From an uncultured Candidatus Cenarchaeum sp. (GTDB taxonomy: Archaea; Thermoproteota; Nitrososphaeria; Nitrososphaerales; Nitrosopumilaceae), in the NCBI GenBank assembly GCA_958295735.1, contig OY282369.1, positions 324,161-356,160 on the forward strand: a DNA stretch of 32,000 nt, read 5' to 3'. The notes under the pieces were generated by a model. It had not been told where the DNA came from and did not search any database. It was given only the letters and a program-made list of their open reading frames with translations. Made by a program: the position numbers and the translations under genes. Below, piece after piece: positions 13,652-26,625 of the stretch; position 1 is the stretch's first letter; every line of letters starts with the position of its first letter.

Positions 13652-13725
13652 GCTTCGATAGCTCAGCCTGGTAGAGCGTTACCTTGGTAAGGTAAAGGTC
13701 ACGGGTTCGGATCCCGTTCGAAGCT
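13652..13725 (+). tRNA. tRNA-Thr (anticodon GGU)
   Basis: GCUUCGA UA GCUC AGCCUGGUA GAGC G UUACC UUGGUAA GGUAA AGGUC ACGGG UUCGGAU CCCGU UCGAAGC U. A TATA-like 'aattataagga' lies ~25-30 nt upstream. Confidence 0.9.
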
Positions 13726-14576
13726 CAGAAATTCCTGATCAGCAGCTCGTGGTGGCCCGACCTGCCGGACGAGTCGGAGTTGATCAGCCTGTTGGCGGTG
13801 AGCTTGGCCACGTTCCACCCGCCGAAGAGCCTGCGCACCGGCTCGGTGTCCGAGTTGGAGAGGACCACGCGGCACCCCGCCCCGTCCAGGCGGGCGTACT
13901 CGGAGGCCAGCCTCTCCAGGTCGGCGGCCACAAAGTCCCCCCCGGTGTACTGCGTAAAGCTGGCGGTCGCGCTCACCGGCTGGTAGGGCGGATCGAGGTA
14001 GACAAAGTCGCCCTCCCCCGCGCCGGCCAGCGCATCCGCAAAGTCGCCGGACGAGATCCGCACGTTCCCGGATCCCAGCAGCCGGCTGGCGGCCCGCAGG
14101 CCCTCCTCGTTCACTATGTTCGGGTTGGCGTACCTGCCCATCGGCACGTTGAACTTTCCGCGGCGGTTCACGCGGTACAGCCCGTTGAAGCACGTCCTGT
14201 TCAGGAACACCAAGCGGGAGCACACAGACACGGGATCCGACGGCTCCTCGCCCCGCACGCGGTAGTAGTACCCGGAACGGTCCTCCGCGTAGCCCGCGGC
14301 GTGGCCCCTGAGCGACTCTATGAGCTCGTCCACCCTGTCGCGCACCACCGTATACGCGAGGATCAGATCGGCGTTGAGATCCGAGACGAGGCAACGACGG
14401 CCGGGATCGAGCAGGAGCGTGTAGAACAGGACTGCCCCGCCGCCCAAAAAGGGCTCGAAGTACCTGCCGAACTCCCTCGGAAAGTACTCGCTCATGGCGG
14501 GAATGAGCCGCCTCTTTCCCCCGGCCCACTTTACGAACGGCCGCGGGGCCCTGTCTGCCAGATGCTGCTTGGGCAA
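13725..14576 (-). CDS. Dam-type (D12 class) N6-adenine DNA methyltransferase
   Basis: PFVKWAGGKRRLIPAM...YFEPFLGGGAVLF (SAM-binding FxGxG) and FVYLDPPYQPVS (DPPY catalytic motif). The stop codon (13725-13727) touches the discriminator base of tRNA-Thr. Confidence 0.9.
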   Translation of the reverse strand: MPKQHLADRAPRPFVKWAGGKRRLIPAMSEYFPREFGRYFEPFLGGGAVLFYTLLLDPGRRCLVSDLNADLILAYTVVRDRVDELIESLRGHAAGYAEDRSGYYYRVRGEEPSDPVSVCSRLVFLNRTCFNGLYRVNRRGKFNVPMGRYANPNIVNEEGLRAASRLLGSGNVRISSGDFADALAGAGEGDFVYLDPPYQPVSATASFTQYTGGDFVAADLERLASEYARLDGAGCRVVLSNSDTEPVRRLFGGWNVAKLTANRLINSDSSGRSGHHELLIRNF

Positions 14577-14843: not shown

Positions 14844-15494
14844 TCAGTCCCACTTGGACCATGCGGCCATCCATCTGTACGTCCAGGTGTTCAGTTTGAC
14901 ACCTAACGCTGCCATGGTGACCGACAAGACAGCACCAGCGCCAGCACCTAACGCCACCGGACTGTTATAGAACTTCCCGACTTGGGGTTCTATTGGAGTC
15001 ATGTACGGGGGCAACGTGGGACGCGGGTACTTGAATGCCGTCTCCAGCGGGTCTGCCACTGTGATAAGATTTACCATGTTGAACAACGGCAACGACATGC
15101 CGACCAGCACGCCGCCGAACAGTATCAGCGAGTGCTTGTTCCGCTTTGTCGCCCAGTACGCCAAATCCAACAGCATCGCCGATGGAAGCCACACCGGAGT
15201 GACGATGAAGTCGTACGGGTAACCAAGTGCGAACCAAGCGCCCTTTGCCACCCAAGTGTACACCGTCATGATTAGCGCGTAGTACGTCGCCGTACCTGGA
15301 ACGCCCGTGAACGTGAGGTAGTACGTTGCGCCTACGACCAGCATCAGGGTTTGCGATATGGAGAACACCGTGTACGACGTCCATGCCCAATCAGTGTAGA
15401 AGATGTAGTCTCCTGCGTTAATTGTCAACAGGGTCGAGTTCACTGCAACCACTATTATGAACAAGTAGTGCGTGCACCGCCTAAGCCAGACCAT
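14844..15494 (-). CDS. amoA: ammonia monooxygenase subunit A (archaeal)
   Basis: 216 aa: MVWLRRCTHYLFIIVVAVNSTLLTINAGDYIFYTDWAWTSYTVFSISQTLMLVVGATYYLTFTGVPGTATYYALIMTVYTWVAKGAWFALGYPYDFIVTPVWLPSAMLLD... This is the canonical thaumarchaeal AmoA sequence and length. Confidence 0.97.
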   Translation of the reverse strand: MVWLRRCTHYLFIIVVAVNSTLLTINAGDYIFYTDWAWTSYTVFSISQTLMLVVGATYYLTFTGVPGTATYYALIMTVYTWVAKGAWFALGYPYDFIVTPVWLPSAMLLDLAYWATKRNKHSLILFGGVLVGMSLPLFNMVNLITVADPLETAFKYPRPTLPPYMTPIEPQVGKFYNSPVALGAGAGAVLSVTMAALGVKLNTWTYRWMAAWSKWD

Positions 15495-15901: not shown

Positions 15902-16264
15902 TCAGTTGCCCACGAACAGCGAGATCAGCACCGTGCCGATCGCGGTACCGCCGAGCGTTACGCCCACGAGACCATTGCTCTTCTTTGTAGAGCCTTCCTC
16001 CGACACCTTCACGCTGAAGAGGTAGCCGATGGCTTCCACGATAGTCAGCACGATGAAGGCATAGTGGCCGCTCGGAGTGGGGTACGCCCAAGGATAGTAG
16101 TAGTATCCAGCAGCCGTACCGCCAAAGGTGGCAAGCCAAGCCGCGATGTAGGAAATCGTGATAAGACCCGTCATGTTTTCGACGCGCCGGCCGATCATTC
16201 TCTCGACGTCTGCAGAACCCGTGCCTCCGGCACCGCCCGATCCAAATCCCTTCGGAAGAGTCAT
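15902..16264 (-). CDS. amoX: AmoX (small three-TM protein conserved between amoA and amoC in archaeal amo clusters)
   Basis: 120 aa from the ATG at 16264: MTLPKGFGSGG...GLITISYIAAWLATFGGTAAGYYYYPWAYPTPSGHYAFIVLTIVEAIGYLFSV...GLVGVTLGGTAIGTVLISLFVGN. The position matches amoX. The 223-aa track ORF extends into GC spacer. A TATA box lies 20-33 nt upstream of 16264. Confidence 0.85.
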   Translation of the reverse strand: MTLPKGFGSGGAGGTGSADVERMIGRRVENMTGLITISYIAAWLATFGGTAAGYYYYPWAYPTPSGHYAFIVLTIVEAIGYLFSVKVSEEGSTKKSNGLVGVTLGGTAIGTVLISLFVGN

Positions 16265-17784: not shown

Positions 17785-18348
17785 TTATGGGATTGAGCGG
17801 CTGTACAGCTTGCCCTCTAGGGCCATCTTGTACATTTCCGCGACGTACGGGTTTTCGCCGGGCGTCTCCGCCCCGAGCTCGACCAGCCGCGCGTACACCC
17901 TGACCACGTAGGCCAAGGCGCCCATGAAGGCCACCACCACGCCCATGTTGAACATCCAGTGGTTGGGAACGGCGAAGATCTCCTCGACGAACCAAAAGTG
18001 CCACATCTCGTTGACGCCGATCGTGAACATGGTGGCAAGGTAACCGAGTATGGTCATCTTGAGCCCCGTGTTCATCGAGTTGTTCGGGCCTCTGAGTATG
18101 GGCACCCTTCTGTCGTAGATTGCGACCGCACCCCATCCCAGCGGCAGAGCCACGAAGTGGGAGTACAGCCACCAGTGCGCCGGTGTGAACGCGCTGTCCC
18201 TTATGGACGTCTGGTGCAGCGAGCCGTCGACGAAGTTGTCAACCTCGACCGACGCCGCGGTGGAACCCATTGCGATTACGATGAGCCAGATCTTTTTGAG
18301 CCTCTGGATCTCGACCTCTTTTGGGATCAATGCAGGCATTTGTGCCAT
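17785..18348 (-). CDS. amoC: ammonia monooxygenase subunit C (archaeal)
   Basis: 187 aa: MAQMPALIPKEVEIQRLKKIWLIVIAMGSTAASVEVDNFVDGSLHQTSIRDSAFTPAHWWLYSHFVALPLGWG...FTIGVNEMWHFWFVEEIFAVPNHWMFNMG. This is the canonical thaumarchaeal AmoC. Confidence 0.95.
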   Translation of the reverse strand: MAQMPALIPKEVEIQRLKKIWLIVIAMGSTAASVEVDNFVDGSLHQTSIRDSAFTPAHWWLYSHFVALPLGWGAVAIYDRRVPILRGPNNSMNTGLKMTILGYLATMFTIGVNEMWHFWFVEEIFAVPNHWMFNMGVVVAFMGALAYVVRVYARLVELGAETPGENPYVAEMYKMALEGKLYSRSIP

Positions 18349-18555: not shown

Positions 18556-18589
18556 TTCCATGTTGGGCGGCAAGAATCAAGGGATAGCA

Positions 18590-19159
18590 ATGATGGACAA
18601 GAAGATACTAGTGATAGGACTCGGCGCCGTACTGGCCTTGGGCACGCTCGGCTTCAACTGGATCGAGGCCGTCCTGCCCACGGTGGAGGCGCACGGCGTC
18701 CAGGCGCAGCTGCAGAGCCGCTTCGTGAGGATAGAAGACGAGACGTTCAACAGGCAGTCCCTCCAGACGGGCGAGACCCTGTGCCTCTCCGGCCAGTTCG
18801 TCAGCTTGGTGGAAAGGGACATGAGGGCGTGGAACTCCATATTCTCGGAGTCGACGAACGCCGGCAACCGCTGGGAGATCCTCTCCAGGGACCCGCCCGG
18901 AAACGTCTTTGATCTTCCAGGCAACTCCGTAGTTCCGTACGAGATATGCGCCAAGGCGCTGGAGCCTGGCCTGTACCACGTCCACACCCAGCTCAATGTG
19001 GCGCAGGTCGGCCCGGGCCTCGGCCCAGGGCAGACGGTGGTCGTTGACGGGGAGTACATCGTGAAGGAGATACCTTACGTGAACATTGCGTACCAGTCGA
19101 TCATCATCGGCGTCGGTTACGTGATCACGTTCGCGACGAGGCCCTGGCAGGTCATCTGA
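18590..19159 (+). CDS. amoB: ammonia monooxygenase subunit B (archaeal)
   Basis: MMDKKILVIGLGAVLALGTLGFNWIEAVLPTVEAHGVQAQLQSRFVRIEDETFNRQSLQTGE...: a signal/TM segment, then HGVQAQLQSRF, typical of archaeal AmoB, and a C-terminal TM. The start at 18590 is preferred over 18560 because of the TATA position. Confidence 0.95.
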   Translation: MMDKKILVIGLGAVLALGTLGFNWIEAVLPTVEAHGVQAQLQSRFVRIEDETFNRQSLQTGETLCLSGQFVSLVERDMRAWNSIFSESTNAGNRWEILSRDPPGNVFDLPGNSVVPYEICAKALEPGLYHVHTQLNVAQVGPGLGPGQTVVVDGEYIVKEIPYVNIAYQSIIIGVGYVITFATRPWQVI

Positions 19160-19165
19160 TCCCAC

Positions 19166-19177
19166 CTATTTTCATTT
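19166..19177 (+). terminator. T-tract after the amoB stop
   Basis: TGAtcccaCCTATTTTCATTT. The 'ttttcattt' core also follows amoA. Confidence 0.45.
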
Positions 19178-19276
19178 AGCCCGGAGGCCGAAGGCCGCCG
19201 GCCCCTCCATTCGGGGCCCGACTTGCGGGCAGAGGGGCGGGCCGCCCCGCGCTAGGCGCGCGGGACCTGGCGGGGG

Positions 19277-19374
19277 GGCGGGCCGGCCGCGGTGCCGCAT
19301 CGCGGCCCCTCCAGCTCCGCGACCTCGTTCCTTGCGCGACGAAGGCGGGCCGGCCGCGGTGCCGCATCGCGGCC
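19277..19374. repeat. 31-bp segment duplicated at 67-bp spacing
   Basis: 'ggcgggccggccgcggtgccgcatcgcggcc' occurs at 19277 and 19344. Confidence 0.85.
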
Positions 19375-19440
19375 TCCCCCCCCCCCCCGGCCCAAGGACG
19401 GCGCGCGGCGCCCGGAGTGCCGCGGCTTCCGCCGGCCCGC

Positions 19441-19552
19441 GCGGGGCCGGCAGGCCGCCCGTCCGCATCCCGGCGCGGGGCCGGCAGGCCGCCCGTCCGC
19501 ATCCCGGCGCGGGGCCGGCAGGCCGCCCGTCCGCATCCCGGCGCGGGGCCGG
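19441..19552. repeat. 34-bp tandem repeat, 3 full copies plus a partial
   Basis: 'gcggggccggcaggccgcccgtccgcatcccggc' starts at 19441, 19475 and 19509, with a partial copy at 19543. Confidence 0.9.
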
Positions 19553-19640
19553 CCGCCGAGCCTCCGCGGCCGCCGGGCGCACGGGCCCCGGCGGAGGCGC
19601 GGCAGAAATTGATTTTACGCCCGGGAGCGCGGCGTGCGGC

Positions 19641-19958
19641 ATGATAGCCTTCGGCATCGTCCGCCTCGACATCGGGCAGGGTTACTTTTTCGGGACGGTC
19701 GAAAGGGGCGGGGAGGAGTACAAGATCAACGTGCAGAATGAGAGGAGGGGCAAGGTGCTAAAGCTGCCCGCGGGGATGGCCCCCAAGAGGGACAGGGTCC
19801 TGGTCAGGCTCTCCGGAGGCGACGCGTTCGTGGAGGACGTGCTGCCGTACTCTGGCGAGTCCGAGTGGGTGGAGATCGACTCGGACGAAATAACTTTCTT
19901 CGTGGCCGACAACCAGGACGTCTTCGACACGCTGGAGGTGATCGACGATGGTCCCTAG
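19641..19958 (+). CDS. hypothetical protein (105 aa)
   Basis: From the ATG at 19641: MIAFGIVRLDIGQGYFFGTVERGGEEYKINVQNERRGKVLKLPAGMAPKRDRVLVRLSGGDAFVEDVLPYSGESEWVEIDSDEITFFVADNQ... The upstream 103 codons of the track ORF are translated repeats. Confidence 0.65.
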   Translation: MIAFGIVRLDIGQGYFFGTVERGGEEYKINVQNERRGKVLKLPAGMAPKRDRVLVRLSGGDAFVEDVLPYSGESEWVEIDSDEITFFVADNQDVFDTLEVIDDGP

Positions 19959-20238
19959 GGCTCCGGGGGGGCCGGCGGGCGGGGGCGCGGGGACCAGACC
20001 GGCTCGCTCGCCCGGCTCCGCGGCCTAGCCGCTCCGGCGTGGGCCGGCGGGCGGGGGCGCGGGGACGGATCCTGGCCGGAGCGCTTCGGCTATGCGTTAT
20101 GCGCGAATCCAACGCACGGGTGCCTTGCAGCAACAGGAGGAACTTGGTCGGGGGACGGCCTCCGGCAACCGGCGGCGGCGGGGGGCGGAGAGGCTGAAGC
20201 GAGGCAGCGGGCGGCCTCCGGCAACCGGCGGCGAGGTA

Positions 20239-20385
20239 GCGGCGAGTCCGGGCAGGGGAGCGGCGGGCGGCAGGGGCGGCGAGTCCGGGCAGCCTCTCCC
20301 CCAACATCTCCTTTTGGTATTCCCCGAGGGAGCGGCGGGCGGCAAAGGCGGCGAGTCCGGGCAGGGGAGCGGCGGGCGGCAAAGG
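20239..20385. repeat. interspersed short repeats in a GC-rich spacer
   Basis: 'ggcggcgagtccgggcag' occurs about 3 times and 'gggagcggcgggcggca' about 3 times. 'ggcggcctccggcaaccggcggcg' also occurs at ~20155 and ~20210. Confidence 0.7.
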
Positions 20386-20785
20386 GGCGGGGCGGCGGAA
20401 CGAAGCGGCGGGCGGGCGGAAGCGAAATGGGGCGGCGGGCGGGCGGGCAGCCTTTCGGCAGGAGGCGCGGGCAACGCGGCACGGTCAGGCGCAGGCCGTA
20501 GGCGCGCTGCCGCGGCCGAAGCACGGCATGCGGCAGGATGCACGCCGTGCAGTCCACCAAGGCCGCACGGCGGAAGCGCGGCGGACGGCACGCCGGCCCG
20601 AGCCGCCGCGGTGCGGCCAGGAACGGAGAGTCTGGCGGCCCCCGGCAGGGCCCTCGGCGTGCGGGCGGCCGGCGCCCTCCGGCAGGCAGCCTGGAAACTG
20701 GACGATCCGGCCGGTTTGGGCGCGGATCCGGGCCGATCGCGGCAAACAGAAATGTATATAACGAACAAATAGAGACCGCTGAGGC

Positions 20786-21055
20786 ATGACTCCGATACTG
20801 GGCACCTTCCTGAGCGTCCTATCCACGCTGACGGGCCAGCTTGGGCCAAACTACGACCCGCTGTTCTACGACGTGATGATCTACATCTTCGGCACCATCA
20901 TGTTCACCGTGTTCCTGCTTGGAATCATCGCGTTCTGGTTGCGCGTCCACGGGTGGGGGTACAAGGACAACCGCGAGAGGTGGATCGACGAGCTTGACAG
21001 GCACTTTGAAAGGGAAGGCATAGGCCTGATTCCGGACAACGGAAAATACTGGTAG
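20786..21055 (+). CDS. small single-TM membrane protein (89 aa)
   Basis: MTPILGTFLSVLSTLTGQLGPNYDPLFYDVMIYIFGTIMFTVFLLGIIAFWLRVHGWGYKDNRERWIDELDRHFEREG... A TATA box 'aatgtatataac' (20748-20760) lies ~27 nt upstream of the ATG. Confidence 0.7.
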   Translation: MTPILGTFLSVLSTLTGQLGPNYDPLFYDVMIYIFGTIMFTVFLLGIIAFWLRVHGWGYKDNRERWIDELDRHFEREGIGLIPDNGKYW

Positions 21056-21455
21056 CCTTTTCTCTTTTTCATTATTTTGGCGCCCCCTCAGGGCGCTTTT
21101 CGCCGCCCGTCACCTGGCTTTAGCATCCCGCCGGCAGGACCCGGCCGGCGGCGGGAAGGACTAGGCGCGGCGCGGAAAGGGAACGCGGGTCGGCGCCCGG
21201 CAGGAGCAGGCGCGAAAACGCCCTTGCCGATCCGGGCCGGCGCCCGGCGGGGGCGGCGGCGCGGAGGGACGTGCCGCGGCATGGCTCGCCTTCGCGGGAA
21301 ACAGGAACGCGTTCCTTCAGAGCAACGGCGGCGCGGAGGGACGTGCCGCGGCACGTCTCGTCCCGGCGGGGCCGGCCGCCCCGGCCGCCCGGCGCCGGCC
21401 CTGATCGCGAGGCGCCCGCGGCCGGCGCGCGCCCCCGCGGGAAGCGGCCCGCCGA

Positions 21456-21980
21456 TCACGCGTCGGGGGGGAGAAAGTCGGTGTCCTTGCTGTCGTCGTA
21501 CGACTTTGTGGTGAACTCGGCCACGTAGTGCGAGCCGTCCACCAGCGGCGCCCGTATGAACTCCCCGGCCACGCGGCCGTCCACCGTGATCCTCGACTTG
21601 GACTCCTCCATGTCGCGCAACGGAAAGTCAAACACCCACAGGAAGTGGCCTATCTCGAACGGGTACTCCTCCTCCCACGCCGCGTGGATGGTCCCGTCGT
21701 CGGAAAGCGTGTAGAGGCTCCTCTGGCATCCGCCCTCCTCGAACCCGGCGTTCGCCGGTATTACCGCCTCGTTCCCGTCCACTACGAGATCCAGCGTGGC
21801 GGTGATCCGGTACGGCGTGACCCTGTCGTTGATGCAGACCTTGAGGGGGTTGTCCCGGTCAAAGTACTGCTGGACCAGGGTGCTCCCGGCGGCCACGGAG
21901 ATCCCGATCACCGCCGTGATTATCAGGAACCTTATGGTCTGCTTCCGCTTGCGGGGATCCCCCATGCCGGGCCAGATCAT
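21456..21980 (-). CDS. membrane-anchored/secreted hypothetical protein (~174 aa)
   Basis: MIWPGMGDPRKRKQTIRFLIITAVIGISVAAGSTLVQQYF... is an N-terminal anchor, followed by a complex ~140-aa domain. An alternative ATG lies at 21965. The track start at 22040 lies in spacer. Confidence 0.7.
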   Translation of the reverse strand: MIWPGMGDPRKRKQTIRFLIITAVIGISVAAGSTLVQQYFDRDNPLKVCINDRVTPYRITATLDLVVDGNEAVIPANAGFEEGGCQRSLYTLSDDGTIHAAWEEEYPFEIGHFLWVFDFPLRDMEESKSRITVDGRVAGEFIRAPLVDGSHYVAEFTTKSYDDSKDTDFLPPDA

Positions 21981-22042
21981 GCCGCATGCCGGAGGCGAAT
22001 TCCTTAAAGCCGTTTCCCTGCCGAGGCGGCGGGCGGTCACGT

Positions 22043-22355
22043 AACCGGTTCGCCTGGCCGGGGGGGGCGCTATCCCGAAATCGGTTCGCCTGGCCGGGGG
22101 GGGCGCTATCCCGAAATCGTTTCGCCTGGCCGGGGGGGGCGCTATCCCGAAATCGTTTCGCCTGGCCGGGGGGGGCGCTATCCCGAAATCGTTTCGCCTG
22201 GCCGGGGGGGGGCGCTATCCCGAAATCGTTTCGCCTGGCCGGGGGGGGGCGCTATCCCGAAATCGTTTCGCCTGGCCGGGGGGGGGGGCGCTATCCCGAA
22301 ATCGTTTCGCCTGGCCGGGGGGGGGGGGCGCTATCCCGAAATCGTTTCGCCTGGA
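22043..22355. repeat. 36-40-bp tandem repeat (8 units plus a partial) with a stepwise lengthening poly-G tract
   Basis: The unit is 'gcgctatcccgaaatcgtttcgcctggcc' plus G(n). The G-runs I counted are 8, 8, 8, 8, 9, 9, 11 and 12. Unit starts are 22067, 22103, 22139, 22175, 22212, 22249, 22288 and 22328. Confidence 0.9.
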
Positions 22356-22398
22356 AGGCGGGGCGCCCGCGGGCCCGCGCCGGGCAGGGCCGGGGGGG

Positions 22399-22485
22399 GC
22401 GCGCCATCCCGAAATCGTTTCGCCTGGAAGGCGGATCAATGGGAGGAGATGGAGCGATCCCGAAATCGTTTCGCCTGGAAGGCGG
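22399..22485. repeat. two dispersed copies of the same repeat core
   Basis: 'atcccgaaatcgtttcgcctggaaggcgg' occurs at ~22406 and ~22457. 'ggggcgcccgcgggctgccgcaggaagcaaagccggcgc' follows, duplicated at 22484-22560. Confidence 0.8.
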
Positions 22486-22803
22486 GGCGCCCGCGGGCTG
22501 CCGCAGGAAGCAAAGCCGGCGCGGGGCGCCCGCGGGCTGCCGCAGGAAGCAAAGCCGGCGCGGGGCGCCCGCGGGCCGCGTCCCGCCAGGAGGGCGCCTC
22601 CCCCCCCACCCACTTGGTCATCTTGGGCGGGCGGCCGGAGCGGGGAAGAGGGCCGCGTCCCGCCAGGAGGGCGCCTCCCCCACCCGCCCCGCCAAGCCGC
22701 GGCGGATGGGGAGGCGCGCGGGCTACGGAAAGGGCAAGGGGCGGGCTTTGCCCGCTGGAAAATAGAAAAAGAGGTTTCCCGGTCGGCGCGCTGCGCTGCG
22801 CGG

Positions 22804-23133
22804 CTAGCCCCTTCCCTGAGCGGCGTACTTGCCGGTGCGCGACCTGAAGAACAGCGCTCCGGCTATTCCCCCGAACACGGCGCCGGCGATCGCCGAGGAA
22901 CCAAGGACGCCGCTGGCGTCAAGGTACGGCGTCCCCGAGCCGGACTGGGGGTTGGCTTCTGCGTAGTTGACCCTGTCCCGGGCGAGCCTGAGCGTCTCCT
23001 CAAGCGTGTTCTGGCCGGTCTCCCCCGCGTCGCCGACGCTGCCCATGTACTGCGCGTGGGCGAGGCCGACGAAGCCGAGGCTGGCGAACCCTATCACGGC
23101 AAGCATCCCTGCCAATAGTACAGACCTAATCAT
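22804..23133 (-). CDS. small protein with an N-terminal signal/TM and a C-terminal TM anchor (109 aa)
   Basis: MIRSVLLAGMLAVIGFASLGFVGLAHAQ... then ...SSAIAGAVFGGIAGALFFRSRTGKY. A TATA-like 'aaaggttaattaag' on the minus strand lies ~30 nt upstream of the ATG at 23133. Confidence 0.65.
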   Translation of the reverse strand: MIRSVLLAGMLAVIGFASLGFVGLAHAQYMGSVGDAGETGQNTLEETLRLARDRVNYAEANPQSGSGTPYLDASGVLGSSAIAGAVFGGIAGALFFRSRTGKYAAQGRG

Positions 23134-23230
23134 ACCGTTTACTGCCCACGTACGGGCCTCCGACTTAATTAACCTTTATCCCCGGCCGGATCCGGGCAAG
23201 GTTTAATTCGGAAGGCCGGCGGCCGGCGCC

Positions 23231-23686
23231 ATGGGCCGGCTCCACTCCCACATGCACGGCAAGTCGCATTCCATACGGCCCGCGGATGCCCCCGTATGGG
23301 ACTGGCTGGAGGGGGAGGAGGCCGGAAAGGCCGCCGAGGAGCTGGTGGTAAAGTACGCGAAGGACGGCATGTCCCCCAGCCAGATAGGCGTCAAGCTGCG
23401 CGACCAGCACGCCGTCCCCCTGGTGAAGCGGGTGGCCGGGAAGCCCATGAAGCGCATACTGGAGGATGCCGGGATCGTCCCCGAGATGCCCGAGGACCTG
23501 GAGAACATGGTGAAGAAGGCCGTGGGCCTGCAGAGGCACCTCAAGGCCAACAGGGGCGACAGGCGGAACGTCAGGTCGCTGGAGCTCATAGAGGCCAAGG
23601 TGCACAGGCTGGCCGTATACTACAAGAGGACGGGCAGGATACCCGCGGGCTGGAAGTACAAGTCGACGGTGGCCCAGCTGGAATAG
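23231..23686 (+). CDS. rps15: 30S ribosomal protein uS15 (S15P/S13e)
   Basis: MGRLHSHMHGKSHSIRP...SPSQIGVKLRDQHAVPLVK...GLQRHLKANRGDRRNVRSLELIEAKVHRLAVYYKRTGRIPAGWKY. This is the characteristic archaeal S15. A TATA-like 'ggtttaattcgg' lies ~25 nt upstream. Confidence 0.95.
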   Translation: MGRLHSHMHGKSHSIRPADAPVWDWLEGEEAGKAAEELVVKYAKDGMSPSQIGVKLRDQHAVPLVKRVAGKPMKRILEDAGIVPEMPEDLENMVKKAVGLQRHLKANRGDRRNVRSLELIEAKVHRLAVYYKRTGRIPAGWKYKSTVAQLE

Positions 23687-23697
23687 GTGGCGGGGCC

Positions 23698-25155
23698 GTG
23701 GCCAGGAGTCTCGCGGAGGCCCTGTCGCGGCTGGCCGACTCCGTGGCCGACTGCGCCAGGGCGGGCAGGCAGGTCTCCGTGACCACCCACATAGACTGCG
23801 ACGGCCTGGCAGCCGGCGGCATACTGGCGAAGGCGCTGGCCAGGGCCGGCGCGCCGTTCACGGCGTCGGCGGTCAGGGAGTTCGGCAGTTCCGCGGTCGA
23901 GGCCCTGCGGGCCGGGACCAGGGAGTTCCACATAGTGGCCGACCTGGGAAGCGGGGCGGCCTCCATGATGGATAAGGCCCTCGGGGAGGACTGGTTCGTA
24001 CTGGACCACCACCAGATACCCGACGAGGAAATGGACGACGCGAGGGTGGCCAACGCGTGGGCCTTCGGGATGGACGGCGGGACCGGCGTGTGCGCGGGCG
24101 GCATGGCGTACATGGCGGCCAAGGCCATGGACGGGGGCAACGCCGACCTGGCCCCCGCGGCCGTGGTGGCCGCGCTGGGCGACAGGCAGGACTCGGGGGA
24201 GCGCAGGTCCCTGTCCGGCGCCAACGGCGACATAGCCGCCGAGGCGGAGGAGGCAGGGCTGCTGGACGTGTCCACGGACCTGCTGCTGGTGGGCAGGGAG
24301 ACCAGGCCGCTGCCCGACGCCCTGGCGTACACGTCGAGCCCGTTCATAGAGGGGATAACGTGGAGGAGGGACGCCTGCGCGGCCCTGCTCTCGTCCGCGG
24401 GCATCCCCCTGAAGTCCGGCGGGAGGTGGCGCGTCCCGGCCGACCTCACCGAGGAGGAGAAGAGGTCGGTCGTGGAGGCCCTGGCGGGGCGCGCCGCCGG
24501 CGACTCGGTGGACGGGCTGGTGGGCAGCGCGTACACGTTCCCCGAGGAGGACGCGCTCACCTTCCTGAGGGACGCCAGGGAGTACTCCACGCTGCTCAAC
24601 GCCTGCGGCCGGACGGGCCGCACGGGGACGGGCATGGCCGTGTGCATGGGCGACCGCGGGCGGGCGCTGCGCGGGGCCGAGGAGGCCCTGAAGGAGTACA
24701 GGAAGAGCATCAGGACCCAGATGGACGCGCTCACCGGCCAGGGCTGGAAGAGGGTCGACGAGGAGGCCGGGGAGGGCCTCGTGGTGGTCAACGGGGAGGG
24801 GGTCGTCCCGGAGACGATGTCCGGCACGCTGGCCTCGCTGGTGGCCGGCGCGCCGGGCAGGGCCGGGAAGATAGTGGTCCTGTGGACCGGCTCCGGGGGG
24901 GATCCCGGGAAGGCGGCGGGGGAAAAGGGGGCGCCCGGCGGCTCGGTGAAGATCTCGTCCAGGATGTCCGCCTCCTGCAGCACGGGGGCCAACCTGGGCA
25001 GGATAATGGGCGAGGCGGCCGCCGAGTGCGGCGGGGTCGGCGGGGGGCACGCCAGGGCGGCCGGCGCCAGGATAACTAGAGACAAATTGGGCCGGTTCCT
25101 CGGGATGGTCGGAGGGCATGTCGCTAAGGTGCACGGTGCGGGTGGCGCTCAATGA
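23698..25155 (+). CDS. RecJ-like DHH-family phosphoesterase/exonuclease
   Basis: GTG start 12 nt after the rps15 stop. Motifs: DHH motif I VTTHIDCDGLAAGGILAKAL and motif III FVLDHHQIP, plus a C-terminal DHHA1-like GGGHARAAGA. The first 134 codons of the track ORF overlap rps15 out of frame and are rejected. Confidence 0.85.
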   Translation: MARSLAEALSRLADSVADCARAGRQVSVTTHIDCDGLAAGGILAKALARAGAPFTASAVREFGSSAVEALRAGTREFHIVADLGSGAASMMDKALGEDWFVLDHHQIPDEEMDDARVANAWAFGMDGGTGVCAGGMAYMAAKAMDGGNADLAPAAVVAALGDRQDSGERRSLSGANGDIAAEAEEAGLLDVSTDLLLVGRETRPLPDALAYTSSPFIEGITWRRDACAALLSSAGIPLKSGGRWRVPADLTEEEKRSVVEALAGRAAGDSVDGLVGSAYTFPEEDALTFLRDAREYSTLLNACGRTGRTGTGMAVCMGDRGRALRGAEEALKEYRKSIRTQMDALTGQGWKRVDEEAGEGLVVVNGEGVVPETMSGTLASLVAGAPGRAGKIVVLWTGSGGDPGKAAGEKGAPGGSVKISSRMSASCSTGANLGRIMGEAAAECGGVGGGHARAAGARITRDKLGRFLGMVGGHVAKVHGAGGAQ

Positions 25156-25369
25156 CGCCGGGGAGGCGCGGGCGCGCGCCGTCATGGAGGCGCTCGGCCC
25201 CGACAATTCCGGGTTCCCCGACGGGGTGTCCATGGAGATGCTGGCGGAGAAGGGATGCCTCGTCCTGCTGTTCCGCGGCGAGGGGGATGCGGGGGTCGCC
25301 GGCGCCTTGGCGTCCACCATAGACGACGCGCTGGGGCACGCCCAGGTGGCCCTCGGGGTGACCGAATGA
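25118..25369 (+). CDS. small protein, Pcc1-like (KEOPS subunit) candidate
   Basis: 83 aa: ...ALNDAGEARARAVMEALGPD...GCLVLLFRGEGDAGVAGALASTIDDALGHAQVAL. Its size and alternating pattern resemble Pcc1. It overlaps the recJ-like 3' end by 38 nt and shares an ATGA junction with serS. The family call is tentative. Confidence 0.45.
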   Translation: MSLRCTVRVALNDAGEARARAVMEALGPDNSGFPDGVSMEMLAEKGCLVLLFRGEGDAGVAGALASTIDDALGHAQVALGVTE

Positions 25370-26625
25370 TGCTGGACCCCAGACTGTACAGGGAGGAGCC
25401 GGGCAGGGTCCGCCGCATGCTGGAGGCCCGCCGCTCCGGGTTCGACCTGGACGCCCTCGTGCGGGCGGACCGCCTCATGAGGGACCGCTCCAGCGCCGTG
25501 GACGGGGCGAGGAGGAGGAGGAACGAGGCCGGGAAGACAATAGCGCGGCACAAGGGGCGGGGCGGGGAGGCCGAGCGGCTGCTGGGGGAGATGAGGGGGA
25601 TGGCCGGCCGCCTGGAGGAGGCCGAAAAGCGGAGGAGCGCCGCCGAGGCCGAGTGCATGGCGCTGGCCAGGACCATACCCAACATGCTGCACGAGTCCGT
25701 CCCGGACGGCCCCGACGGCGCCTCCAACGTCATAGTGAGGAGCTGGGGCGAGCCCCGCCCCGCGGAGGGGGCCAGGGACCACGTCAGCATAGCGGTGGGC
25801 AGGGGCCTCGTCGATCTGGAGGGGGCGGCCAGGGCGGCCGGCGCCAGGTTCTACTACCTGAAGGGGGGGCTCGTGCGGCTGAGCCAGGCCCTCGTCTCGC
25901 ACGCGCTGGACCTGCTGGAGGGAAGGGGCTACGAGCCGGTGCAGCCGCCGTACCTGATAAACCGCAGGTCGATGGAGGGGGCCGTCATAGCCGAAGACCT
26001 CGAGGGCGCCATATACGGGGTGGAGGGGGAGGACCTGTACCTGATAGGCACCTCCGAGCACGCGGTGGCCGCCATGCGCGCCGACTCCATAATGGACGGG
26101 AAGAAGCTGCCGGCCCGGTACGCCGGCGTCAGCCCCTGCTTCCGGAAGGAGGCCGGGGCGCACGGCGACCAGAAGGGGATATTCAGGGTGCACCAGTTCG
26201 ACAAGGTGGAGCAGTTCGTGTTCTCCAGGCCGGAGGAGTCGTGGGCCGAGCACGAGAGGATGCTGGGGATAGCCGAGGAGTTCTACAGGAGCTTGGGCAT
26301 ACCGTACAGGGTGGCGCTCCTCTCCAGCGGGGACACCGGCAGCGTGGCCGCCAAGACGTACGACATCGAGGCGTGGATGCCCGGGCAGGGCGCGTACAGG
26401 GAGGTGGTGTCCTGCTCCAACTGCCTGGACTTCCAGTCGAGGAGGCTGATGGTCAGGTTCAGGGACAGCACCGACGCGGCCACCTCGTACGCGCACACGC
26501 TCAACAGCACCGTGGTGGCCACCACCAGGGCCATGGTCGCCATAATGGAGAACTTCCAGGAGGACGACGGGCGCGTCCGCGTGCCCGACGCGTTGCGGGA
26601 CCGCGCGGGCGCCGACTACGTGTGA
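25366..26625 (+). CDS. serS: seryl-tRNA synthetase
   Basis: MMLDPRLYREEPGRVRRMLEARR... is the N-terminal coiled-coil arm. Class II motifs include FYYLKGGLVRL, YLIGTSEHAVAAM, VSPCFRKEAGAHG, GIFRVHQFDKVEQF, SCSNCLDFQSRRL and TLNSTVVATTR. Confidence 0.95.
   Translation: MMLDPRLYREEPGRVRRMLEARRSGFDLDALVRADRLMRDRSSAVDGARRRRNEAGKTIARHKGRGGEAERLLGEMRGMAGRLEEAEKRRSAAEAECMALARTIPNMLHESVPDGPDGASNVIVRSWGEPRPAEGARDHVSIAVGRGLVDLEGAARAAGARFYYLKGGLVRLSQALVSHALDLLEGRGYEPVQPPYLINRRSMEGAVIAEDLEGAIYGVEGEDLYLIGTSEHAVAAMRADSIMDGKKLPARYAGVSPCFRKEAGAHGDQKGIFRVHQFDKVEQFVFSRPEESWAEHERMLGIAEEFYRSLGIPYRVALLSSGDTGSVAAKTYDIEAWMPGQGAYREVVSCSNCLDFQSRRLMVRFRDSTDAATSYAHTLNSTVVATTRAMVAIMENFQEDDGRVRVPDALRDRAGADYV

Follow-up and report, generated by a model that had tools for sequence, protein, structure and literature searches.

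The four small genes between amoB and rps15 of an uncultured Cenarchaeum as very probable copies of the Nitrosopumilaceae secondary amo cluster

Which genes follow amoB in the sponge symbiont Candidatus Cenarchaeum, and do they encode additional parts of the ammonia monooxygenase (AMO)? This question is raised by a stretch of 32,000 nucleotides (the window; contig OY282369.1, positions 324,161 to 356,160) from an uncultured Candidatus Cenarchaeum sp., whose genome is a single contig of 3.17 Mb with a GC content of ~70%. Between amoB and rps15, the window carries four small open reading frames (ORFs), here called c105, c89, c174, and c109 in the order in which they lie (Table 1). An earlier reading of the bare letters (the original prediction) had proposed these as candidate accessory AMO subunits, with AmoY and AmoZ possibly among them. 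Our analysis indicates that the four genes are very probably the Cenarchaeum copies of the conserved "secondary amo cluster" of the family Nitrosopumilaceae. The system itself is already known and comprises AmoY, AmoZ, and AmoE, of which the last was described only recently, together with the Nmar_1504-type protein.

Identity of c89 and c109

AmoY corresponds to Nmar_1506 and NVIE_004540 and AmoZ to Nmar_1507 and NVIE_004550 (Hodgskiss et al. 2023, PMC10030591). Except in C. symbiosum, the distance of the amoYZ pair from amoABCX is 1-2 genes in Nitrosopumilaceae. The supplementary table of that work places amoY and amoZ as genes 3 and 4 after amoB in Nitrosopumilus, or as genes 2 and 3 if one of the spacer genes is missing. 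The N. oxyclinae tags (amoB RS08070, amoY RS08085, and amoZ RS08090) leave two genes between amoB and amoY, and Nitrosotenuis DW1 has a single gene there. Extra amoZ paralogues in Nitrosopumilus-type genomes and a predicted disulfide in the soluble domain of N. viennensis AmoZ were also reported (PMC10030591).

A cryo-electron microscopy preprint on the Nitrosopumilus maritimus AMO (10.64898/2026.08.31.748207) uses the names AmoD for AmoX, AmoF for AmoY, and AmoG for AmoZ, and describes AmoF and AmoG as a pair that clamps adjoining AMO protomers to each other and keeps the trimer together. Another subunit, NmAmoE, consists of one transmembrane (TM) helix together with a domain at the C-terminus, and no locus tag is stated for it; AmoH is left unassigned. 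AmoA to AmoG are placed in one gene cluster, from which only Nmar_1504 is excluded; this protein is described as a soluble, cupredoxin-like beta-barrel, encoded in the cluster and not incorporated in the complex, and both structural resemblance to the C-terminal domain of bacterial AmoB and in-vitro pull-down with AmoB cupredoxin domains are reported for it. The molecular dynamics set-up of the preprint lists the histidines of each AMO subunit.

All four ORFs were found at the predicted coordinates, and the topology proposed for each was upheld by Kyte-Doolittle hydropathy. The ORFs are single-copy, and conservation of M1 and the initial residues across family alignments backs their starts. 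Whole-genome searches of 61 Nitrosopumilaceae genomes returned homologues of c109 in all 61, of c89 in 60 (70-97% identity), of c174 in 59 (45-80% identity), and of c105 in 35. Computed against Cenarchaeum relatives, dN/dS was 0.03 for c89, 0.12 for c109, and 0.13-0.21 for c174, indicating purifying selection; for c105, for which dS was saturated against the Cenarchaeum orthologues, pN/pS was 0.23-0.26. Given these homologues and ratios far below 1, the four ORFs are real genes and not GC artefacts. The region is indeed full of long overlapping ORFs in all frames, as would be expected if the four were spurious open frames produced by high GC. However, homologues with 45-97% identity occur in dozens of low-GC genomes, the dN/dS values lie far below 1, and public records contain independent gene calls, leaving that explanation a next to negligible probability.

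Gene order was compared by tblastn of nine window proteins against 80 named loci, 68 of which had enough downstream sequence to be usable. The order amoA- amoX- amoC- amoB+ c105+ c174+ c89- c109- rps15+ was observed in 61 of the 68 loci; the linkage to amoB that the original prediction relied on is therefore conserved in other genomes of ammonia-oxidizing archaea (AOA). The public calls of ten Nitrosopumilus records give the same run, read from the other end, as rps15, 110 aa, 89 aa, 174 aa, 104 aa, amoB (189 aa), amoC, amoX (120 aa), amoA, and a Dam-like methyltransferase. In this canonical order, c89 is the third and c109 the fourth gene after amoB, which are the positions required for amoY and amoZ, and c105 and c174 are the intervening genes.

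N. maritimus is absent from both the 80 tblastn loci and the ten public records compared; therefore, the anchor in strain SCM1 was drawn from accession numbers in sequence clusters. The 90% cluster of the c89 orthologue holds ABX13402.1 (A9A4U8_NITMS) and the cluster of the c105 orthologue holds ABX13400.1 (A9A4U6), two accessions apart, like Nmar_1504 and Nmar_1506. Homology to the published AmoY was thus detected, c89 being 92% identical to ABX13402.1 over 89/89 residues. The histidines listed in the preprint for N. maritimus provided an independent second check beside these accession anchors, and they fit the window proteins. AmoF (AmoY) has His55 and His73 in both organisms, and AmoA has His9 and His121 in both. 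In AmoC, residues 48, 61, 67, 120, and 133 of N. maritimus correspond to 45, 58, 64, 117, and 130 in the window, a constant shift of -3, and in AmoB residues 35, 130, and 132 correspond to 45, 140, and 142, a shift of +10. His67 of AmoD (AmoX) is found at position 67 when the 120-aa start is used.

Taken together, these sequence comparisons identify c89 as AmoY (AmoF). Its predicted topology consists of one TM segment (residues 25-56), with a short N-terminus outside and a charged 36-aa C-terminus inside. A c89 profile matched 79/80 genomes of f1, 3/3 of f2 (Nitrosocaldus-type), and 3/3 of f3 (Nitrososphaeraceae), the three AOA families of the class, and 0/64 genomes in nine other families of the class. 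This restriction to AOA families agrees with the description of AmoY as "unique to AOA".

Position and profile homology likewise identify c109 as AmoZ (AmoG). The protein has a signal-like segment (residues 1-27, AHA|QY), a soluble segment of ~48 aa, and a C-terminal TM segment (76-96), a build conserved in the family alignment, and its tail GKYAA.GRG is invariant. Its homologues occupy the amoZ position, fourth after amoB and beside amoY, in 62 of the 68 loci, with a length of 110 aa in public calls, and several Nitrosopumilus-type genomes hold extra paralogues. In the window, the gene is divergent from rps15, with which it shares a 97-bp spacer. Outside the family, matches of the c109 profile in f2 and f3 adjoin matches of the c89 profile in the genomes G152 (435196-435510), G165, G172 (301713-301991), and G157. 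In G152, of f2, the c109-like gene, the c89-like gene, and amoB are adjacent (435196-437235), in the order that the N. cavascurensis tags give (amoZ-amoY-amoB). In G172 and G157, both of f3, the c89-like gene has the c109-like gene directly upstream, as NVIE_004540 has NVIE_004550, and in G155, also of f3, the two are 4 kb apart, as are NFRAN_RS03800 and NFRAN_RS03825.

The expectation that AmoY and AmoZ are among the four genes was therefore borne out by c89 and c109, while c105 and c174 are neither. The probable AmoE, c174, would extend the original prediction by a further subunit, and for c105 the proposal of an AMO subunit does not hold. A search for homologous proteins with the four sequences returned only the name "hypothetical protein". 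Matches of the single proteins to Pfam, NCBIfam, and PDB sequences (Cas_Csa4, FixQ, glycine zipper, and designed "Bagel" propellers) were sub-threshold and were set aside as noise.

The c174 and c105 proteins

The second intervening gene, c174, encodes a protein with an N-terminal TM segment (14-37) followed by an extracytoplasmic domain of ~135 aa, in which Cys49 and Cys85 are invariant. In 66 of the 68 loci, the gene takes second place after amoB, flanked by the Nmar_1504-type gene and amoY. From this position, the architecture, and the family-restricted distribution, we infer that c174 is most probably AmoE; the inference is strong, and it stays short of a demonstration because the preprint gives no locus tag for AmoE.

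An exhaustive profile search with c174 returned 359 cluster representatives at E <= 1e-3, mostly of 150-210 aa. The alignment of this wider family shows an N-terminal TM anchor followed by the pattern C..HIHPHL..IDG..IPANIGI..C.RPLHTHD..G.IHVE..FTLG.FF.VW..VNG. Named members come from Nitrososphaerales, Nitrosocosmicus, Aenigmarchaeota and Nanoarchaeota (both DPANN), and Parcubacteria-type (CPR) bacteria. Comparison of the AmoE clade with the wider family by hhalign gave a probability of 99.9% and an E value of 1.3e-33 over 152 columns, which shows, at the level of sequence profiles, that the AmoE ectodomain is homologous to this His-rich family and forms a His-depleted offshoot of it. The clade linked to amoYZ has kept the two cysteines and IPAN.G and has lost most histidines (YRITATL and CQRSLYTL). 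Histidines are kept in unlinked paralogues of some Nitrosopumilaceae genera and in the f3 proteins, and the f2 proteins are intermediate; the c174 relatives found outside Nitrosopumilaceae are His-retaining and unlinked. The wider family has neither a Pfam or NCBIfam model nor a solved structure, and the profiles of the c105 family, the c174 family, and the wider family all gave zero matches to PDB sequences. A doubtful but conceivable scenario is that the ancestral family bound metal, possibly copper, that a degenerate copy was taken up in Nitrosopumilaceae to serve as an AMO subunit with a structural role only, and that soil AOA have paralogues, with the histidines retained, whose target may still be AMO or the supply of copper.

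The first gene after amoB in 57 of the 68 loci, c105, is, by sequence, the Nmar_1504 orthologue (62% identity to ABX13400.1). The protein contains neither cysteine nor histidine, as is the case across the family alignment, and none of the 14 aligned members has a signal peptide or a hydrophobic segment. The description of the four genes as a run of small membrane or secreted proteins accordingly holds for c89, c174, and c109 and fails for c105. Three Cenarchaeum relatives have lost the gene; in locus L033 (9985-10281) an internal stop interrupts it, and in locus L052 (4481-4675) it is truncated. Because 26 of the 61 family genomes also lack it, c105 appears dispensable in many lineages. A TAG inside the copy of genome G028 was considered as a further lesion and rejected, since it affects an N-terminal extension only and the ORF is intact.

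Where c105 would act is a question on which the preprint and the window protein point in different directions. An extracellular role on the AmoB cupredoxin domain, as the preprint proposes for Nmar_1504, would fit the reported resemblance and pull-down (10.64898/2026.08.31.748207), the gene's place directly after amoB, and a beta-rich AlphaFold2 (AF2) model of c105 with six strands and one helix. Yet the absence of an export signal in 14 aligned members argues for a cytoplasmic protein, which would fit awkwardly with a role on an extracellular AmoB domain, and a protein devoid of Cys and His would offer no copper ligands. The family profile matched no PmoB or AmoB chain among PDB sequences even at E 10, and a Foldseek search with the weak model found no PmoB/AmoB chain and no cupredoxin (best E 0.5, TM below 0.3). 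Considering also the patchy distribution of the gene, we regard the extracellular role as unlikely.

A related alternative is that only c89 and c109 are AMO subunits, and that c174 and c105 have functions outside ammonia oxidation and stay near amoB as syntenic hitch-hikers, by chance or shared regulation. The many genomes devoid of c105, its loss in the three Cenarchaeum relatives, and the stop in L033 would agree with this, as would the exclusion of Nmar_1504 from the complex by the preprint itself and its silence on the AmoE locus tag (10.64898/2026.08.31.748207). Moreover, clear T-rich terminators, present at the other genes, are missing from c174 and c105, and for c174 there is no clear TATA-like box either. 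Nevertheless, c174 occurs in 59 of the 61 family genomes, nearly always between amoB and amoY, its protein matches the description of NmAmoE exactly in architecture, and the preprint's AmoA to AmoG cluster excludes Nmar_1504 only. Both genes are, in addition, under purifying selection. That c174 and c105 are both such hitch-hikers is thus quite improbable.

Several points weigh against reading the four genes as a secondary amo cluster. The assignment of c109 was reached through synteny and profile homology rather than through a named Nmar_1507 sequence, and that of c174 to AmoE through position and architecture. There is no cysteine in c109 or in 23 family sequences, against the disulfide predicted for N. 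viennensis AmoZ. The Nitrosocaldus-type homologue has cysteine, and the absence distinguishes lineages rather than defining the AmoZ family. The AF2 models, built from shallow alignments, are of low confidence for both c105 (pLDDT 60, pTM 0.56) and c174 (pLDDT 51).

Gene order, spacers, and transcription signals

Table 1. Features of the amo region, with positions in the window.
Feature	Position	Strand	Remarks
c105	19641-19958	+	105 aa; orthologue of ABX13400.1 / A9A4U6
c89, amoY	20786-21055	+	89 aa; 92% identity to ABX13402.1, His55/His73, neighbours
c174, probable amoE (Nmar_1505 position)	21456-21980	-	174 aa; position, architecture
c109, amoZ	22804-23133	-	109 aa; position, profile homology
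amoA	14844-15494	-	primary cluster, divergent from amoB
amoX	15902-16264	-	120 aa; primary cluster, divergent from amoB
amoC	17785-18348	-	primary cluster, divergent from amoB
amoB	18560-19159	+	Pfam/NCBIfam AmoB matches; 4o65 at 1e-47
rps15	23231-23686		downstream limit of the four-gene run
AT-rich TATA-like box AAATTGATTTTA	19606-19617	+	30 nt upstream of the c105 start
AT-rich TATA-like box AAATGTATATAAC	20750-20762	+	30 nt upstream of the c89 (amoY) start
Weak AT patch ctttaaggaatt	21998-22009	-	~18-29 nt upstream of the c174 start; below 7/8 A/T, no clear TATA box
AT-rich box	23163-23173	-	35 nt upstream of the c109 (amoZ) start, in the 97-bp rps15 spacer
T-rich tract, archaeal terminator-like	21065-21079	+	17 nt past the c89 stop
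T-rich tract, terminator-like	22759-22770	-	~40 nt past the c109 stop

In comparison with the canonical order, the pair formed by c174 and c89 (20786-21980) is inverted in the window, so that c89 is the second gene after amoB here and the third elsewhere. Inverted repeats flanking the pair were considered as a mechanism and rejected, since they are GC-rich and of 16-26 nt, and about one such pair is expected by chance (an estimate). Each Cenarchaeum genome examined has its accessory amo genes rearranged in a different way. Locus L014 has lost c105 and carries c109 flipped; in L011 and L012, a stretch of 5-10 kb comes between amoB and c174; and in G028, of the C. symbiosum type, c109 lies 260 kb away.

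The four spacers (19160-19640, 19959-20785, 21056-21455, and 21981-22803) measure 400-830 bp and have a GC content of 73-82%, versus 55-67% in the genes. They contain tandem repeats of 34 bp x3.4 (19439-19553), 36 bp x8.2 (22049-22354), and 39 bp x2.4 (22482-22576). The block from amoA to rps15 spans 8.4 kb here versus ~4.5 kb in Nitrosopumilus.

The spacers were scanned for AT-rich octamers with at least 7 of 8 A/T, which occurred only ~30 nt upstream of starts and just past stops. The original prediction gave each gene its own TATA box, and this was confirmed for c105, c89, and c109, which have an AT-rich box 30-35 nt upstream; c174 has only the weak AT patch of Table 1. The confinement of these octamers to gene ends supports the reading of c105, c89, and c109 as putative separate transcription units. 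A scan for sigma-70 promoters and terminators found nothing beyond chance; its models are bacterial and irrelevant to archaea.

Among the primary genes, a sequence search with amoB of a PDB copy that lacks the N. maritimus AMO entries (9XJ2 and 9XGS) returned matches only to 4o65 and bacterial PmoB. The true start of amoB is probably M11 at 18590, giving a protein of 189 aa, as judged from the +10 shift of its histidines relative to NmAmoB and from the 189-aa calls in public Nitrosopumilus records. For amoX, the start MTLPKGF (16264) gives 120 aa rather than a core of ~92 aa; His67 then fits NmAmoD, and the public calls are also of 120 aa. The wider neighbourhood (13652-14576 and 23686-26625) is Nitrosopumilus-like as well, with a Dam-like methyltransferase beside amoA and a DHH phosphoesterase, Pcc1, and seryl-tRNA synthetase after rps15. 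Since it is common to the Nitrosopumilus records, the whole block of ~12 kb is taken to be ancestral to the family.

Proposed roles and comparison with known systems

The physical roles that these proteins would have in the AMO complex are taken from the literature, while orthology, conservation, linkage, hydropathy-based topology, and purifying selection were observed directly. The products of c89 (AmoY) and c109 (AmoZ) would be single-pass membrane proteins whose N-terminus faces outwards and whose charged C-terminus lies inside, forming the clamp between protomers that the preprint describes. The c174 protein would be a family-specific AMO subunit, anchored in the membrane and exposing an extracytoplasmic domain that contains a disulfide. 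The c105 product would be a small, soluble, beta-rich protein that travels with the cluster and stays outside the purified complex.

Four "hypothetical" genes of a sponge-symbiont genome can thereby be annotated correctly, as an accessory part of the key enzyme of nitrification. In Cenarchaeum, the accessory AMO genes have all stayed intact and subject to selection, despite the reshuffling, the loss of c105 in some species, and the GC-rich repeat spacers. The link between the AmoE ectodomain and the His-rich family is the only element of wider reach, and it offers a handle on the origin of a lineage-specific subunit.

Compared with AmoY (Nmar_1506 and NVIE_004540), c89 has the same length of 89 aa, the same His55 and His73, a single TM segment, the same neighbours, and an AOA-wide distribution; it differs in strand and order, being inverted together with c174, and in having GC-rich spacers of 400-830 bp instead of ~100 bp. 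Compared with AmoZ (Nmar_1507 and NVIE_004550), c109 has the same place by rps15 and the same build, and in other AOA families its profile picks out the neighbour of amoY. However, c109 is not adjacent to amoY in the window, where c174 lies between the two, and the disulfide predicted for the N. viennensis protein cannot form in the cysteine-free c109. The c105 protein has the length, the position after amoB, and the soluble character of the Nmar_1504 protein (ABX13400.1), from which nothing substantial differs. Finally, c174 shares with NmAmoE (10.64898/2026.08.31.748207) its architecture, a gene inside the amo cluster, and a restriction to Nitrosopumilaceae, whereas its domain is not an orphan: it is related, though depleted in histidine, to a family that is unnamed and widespread.

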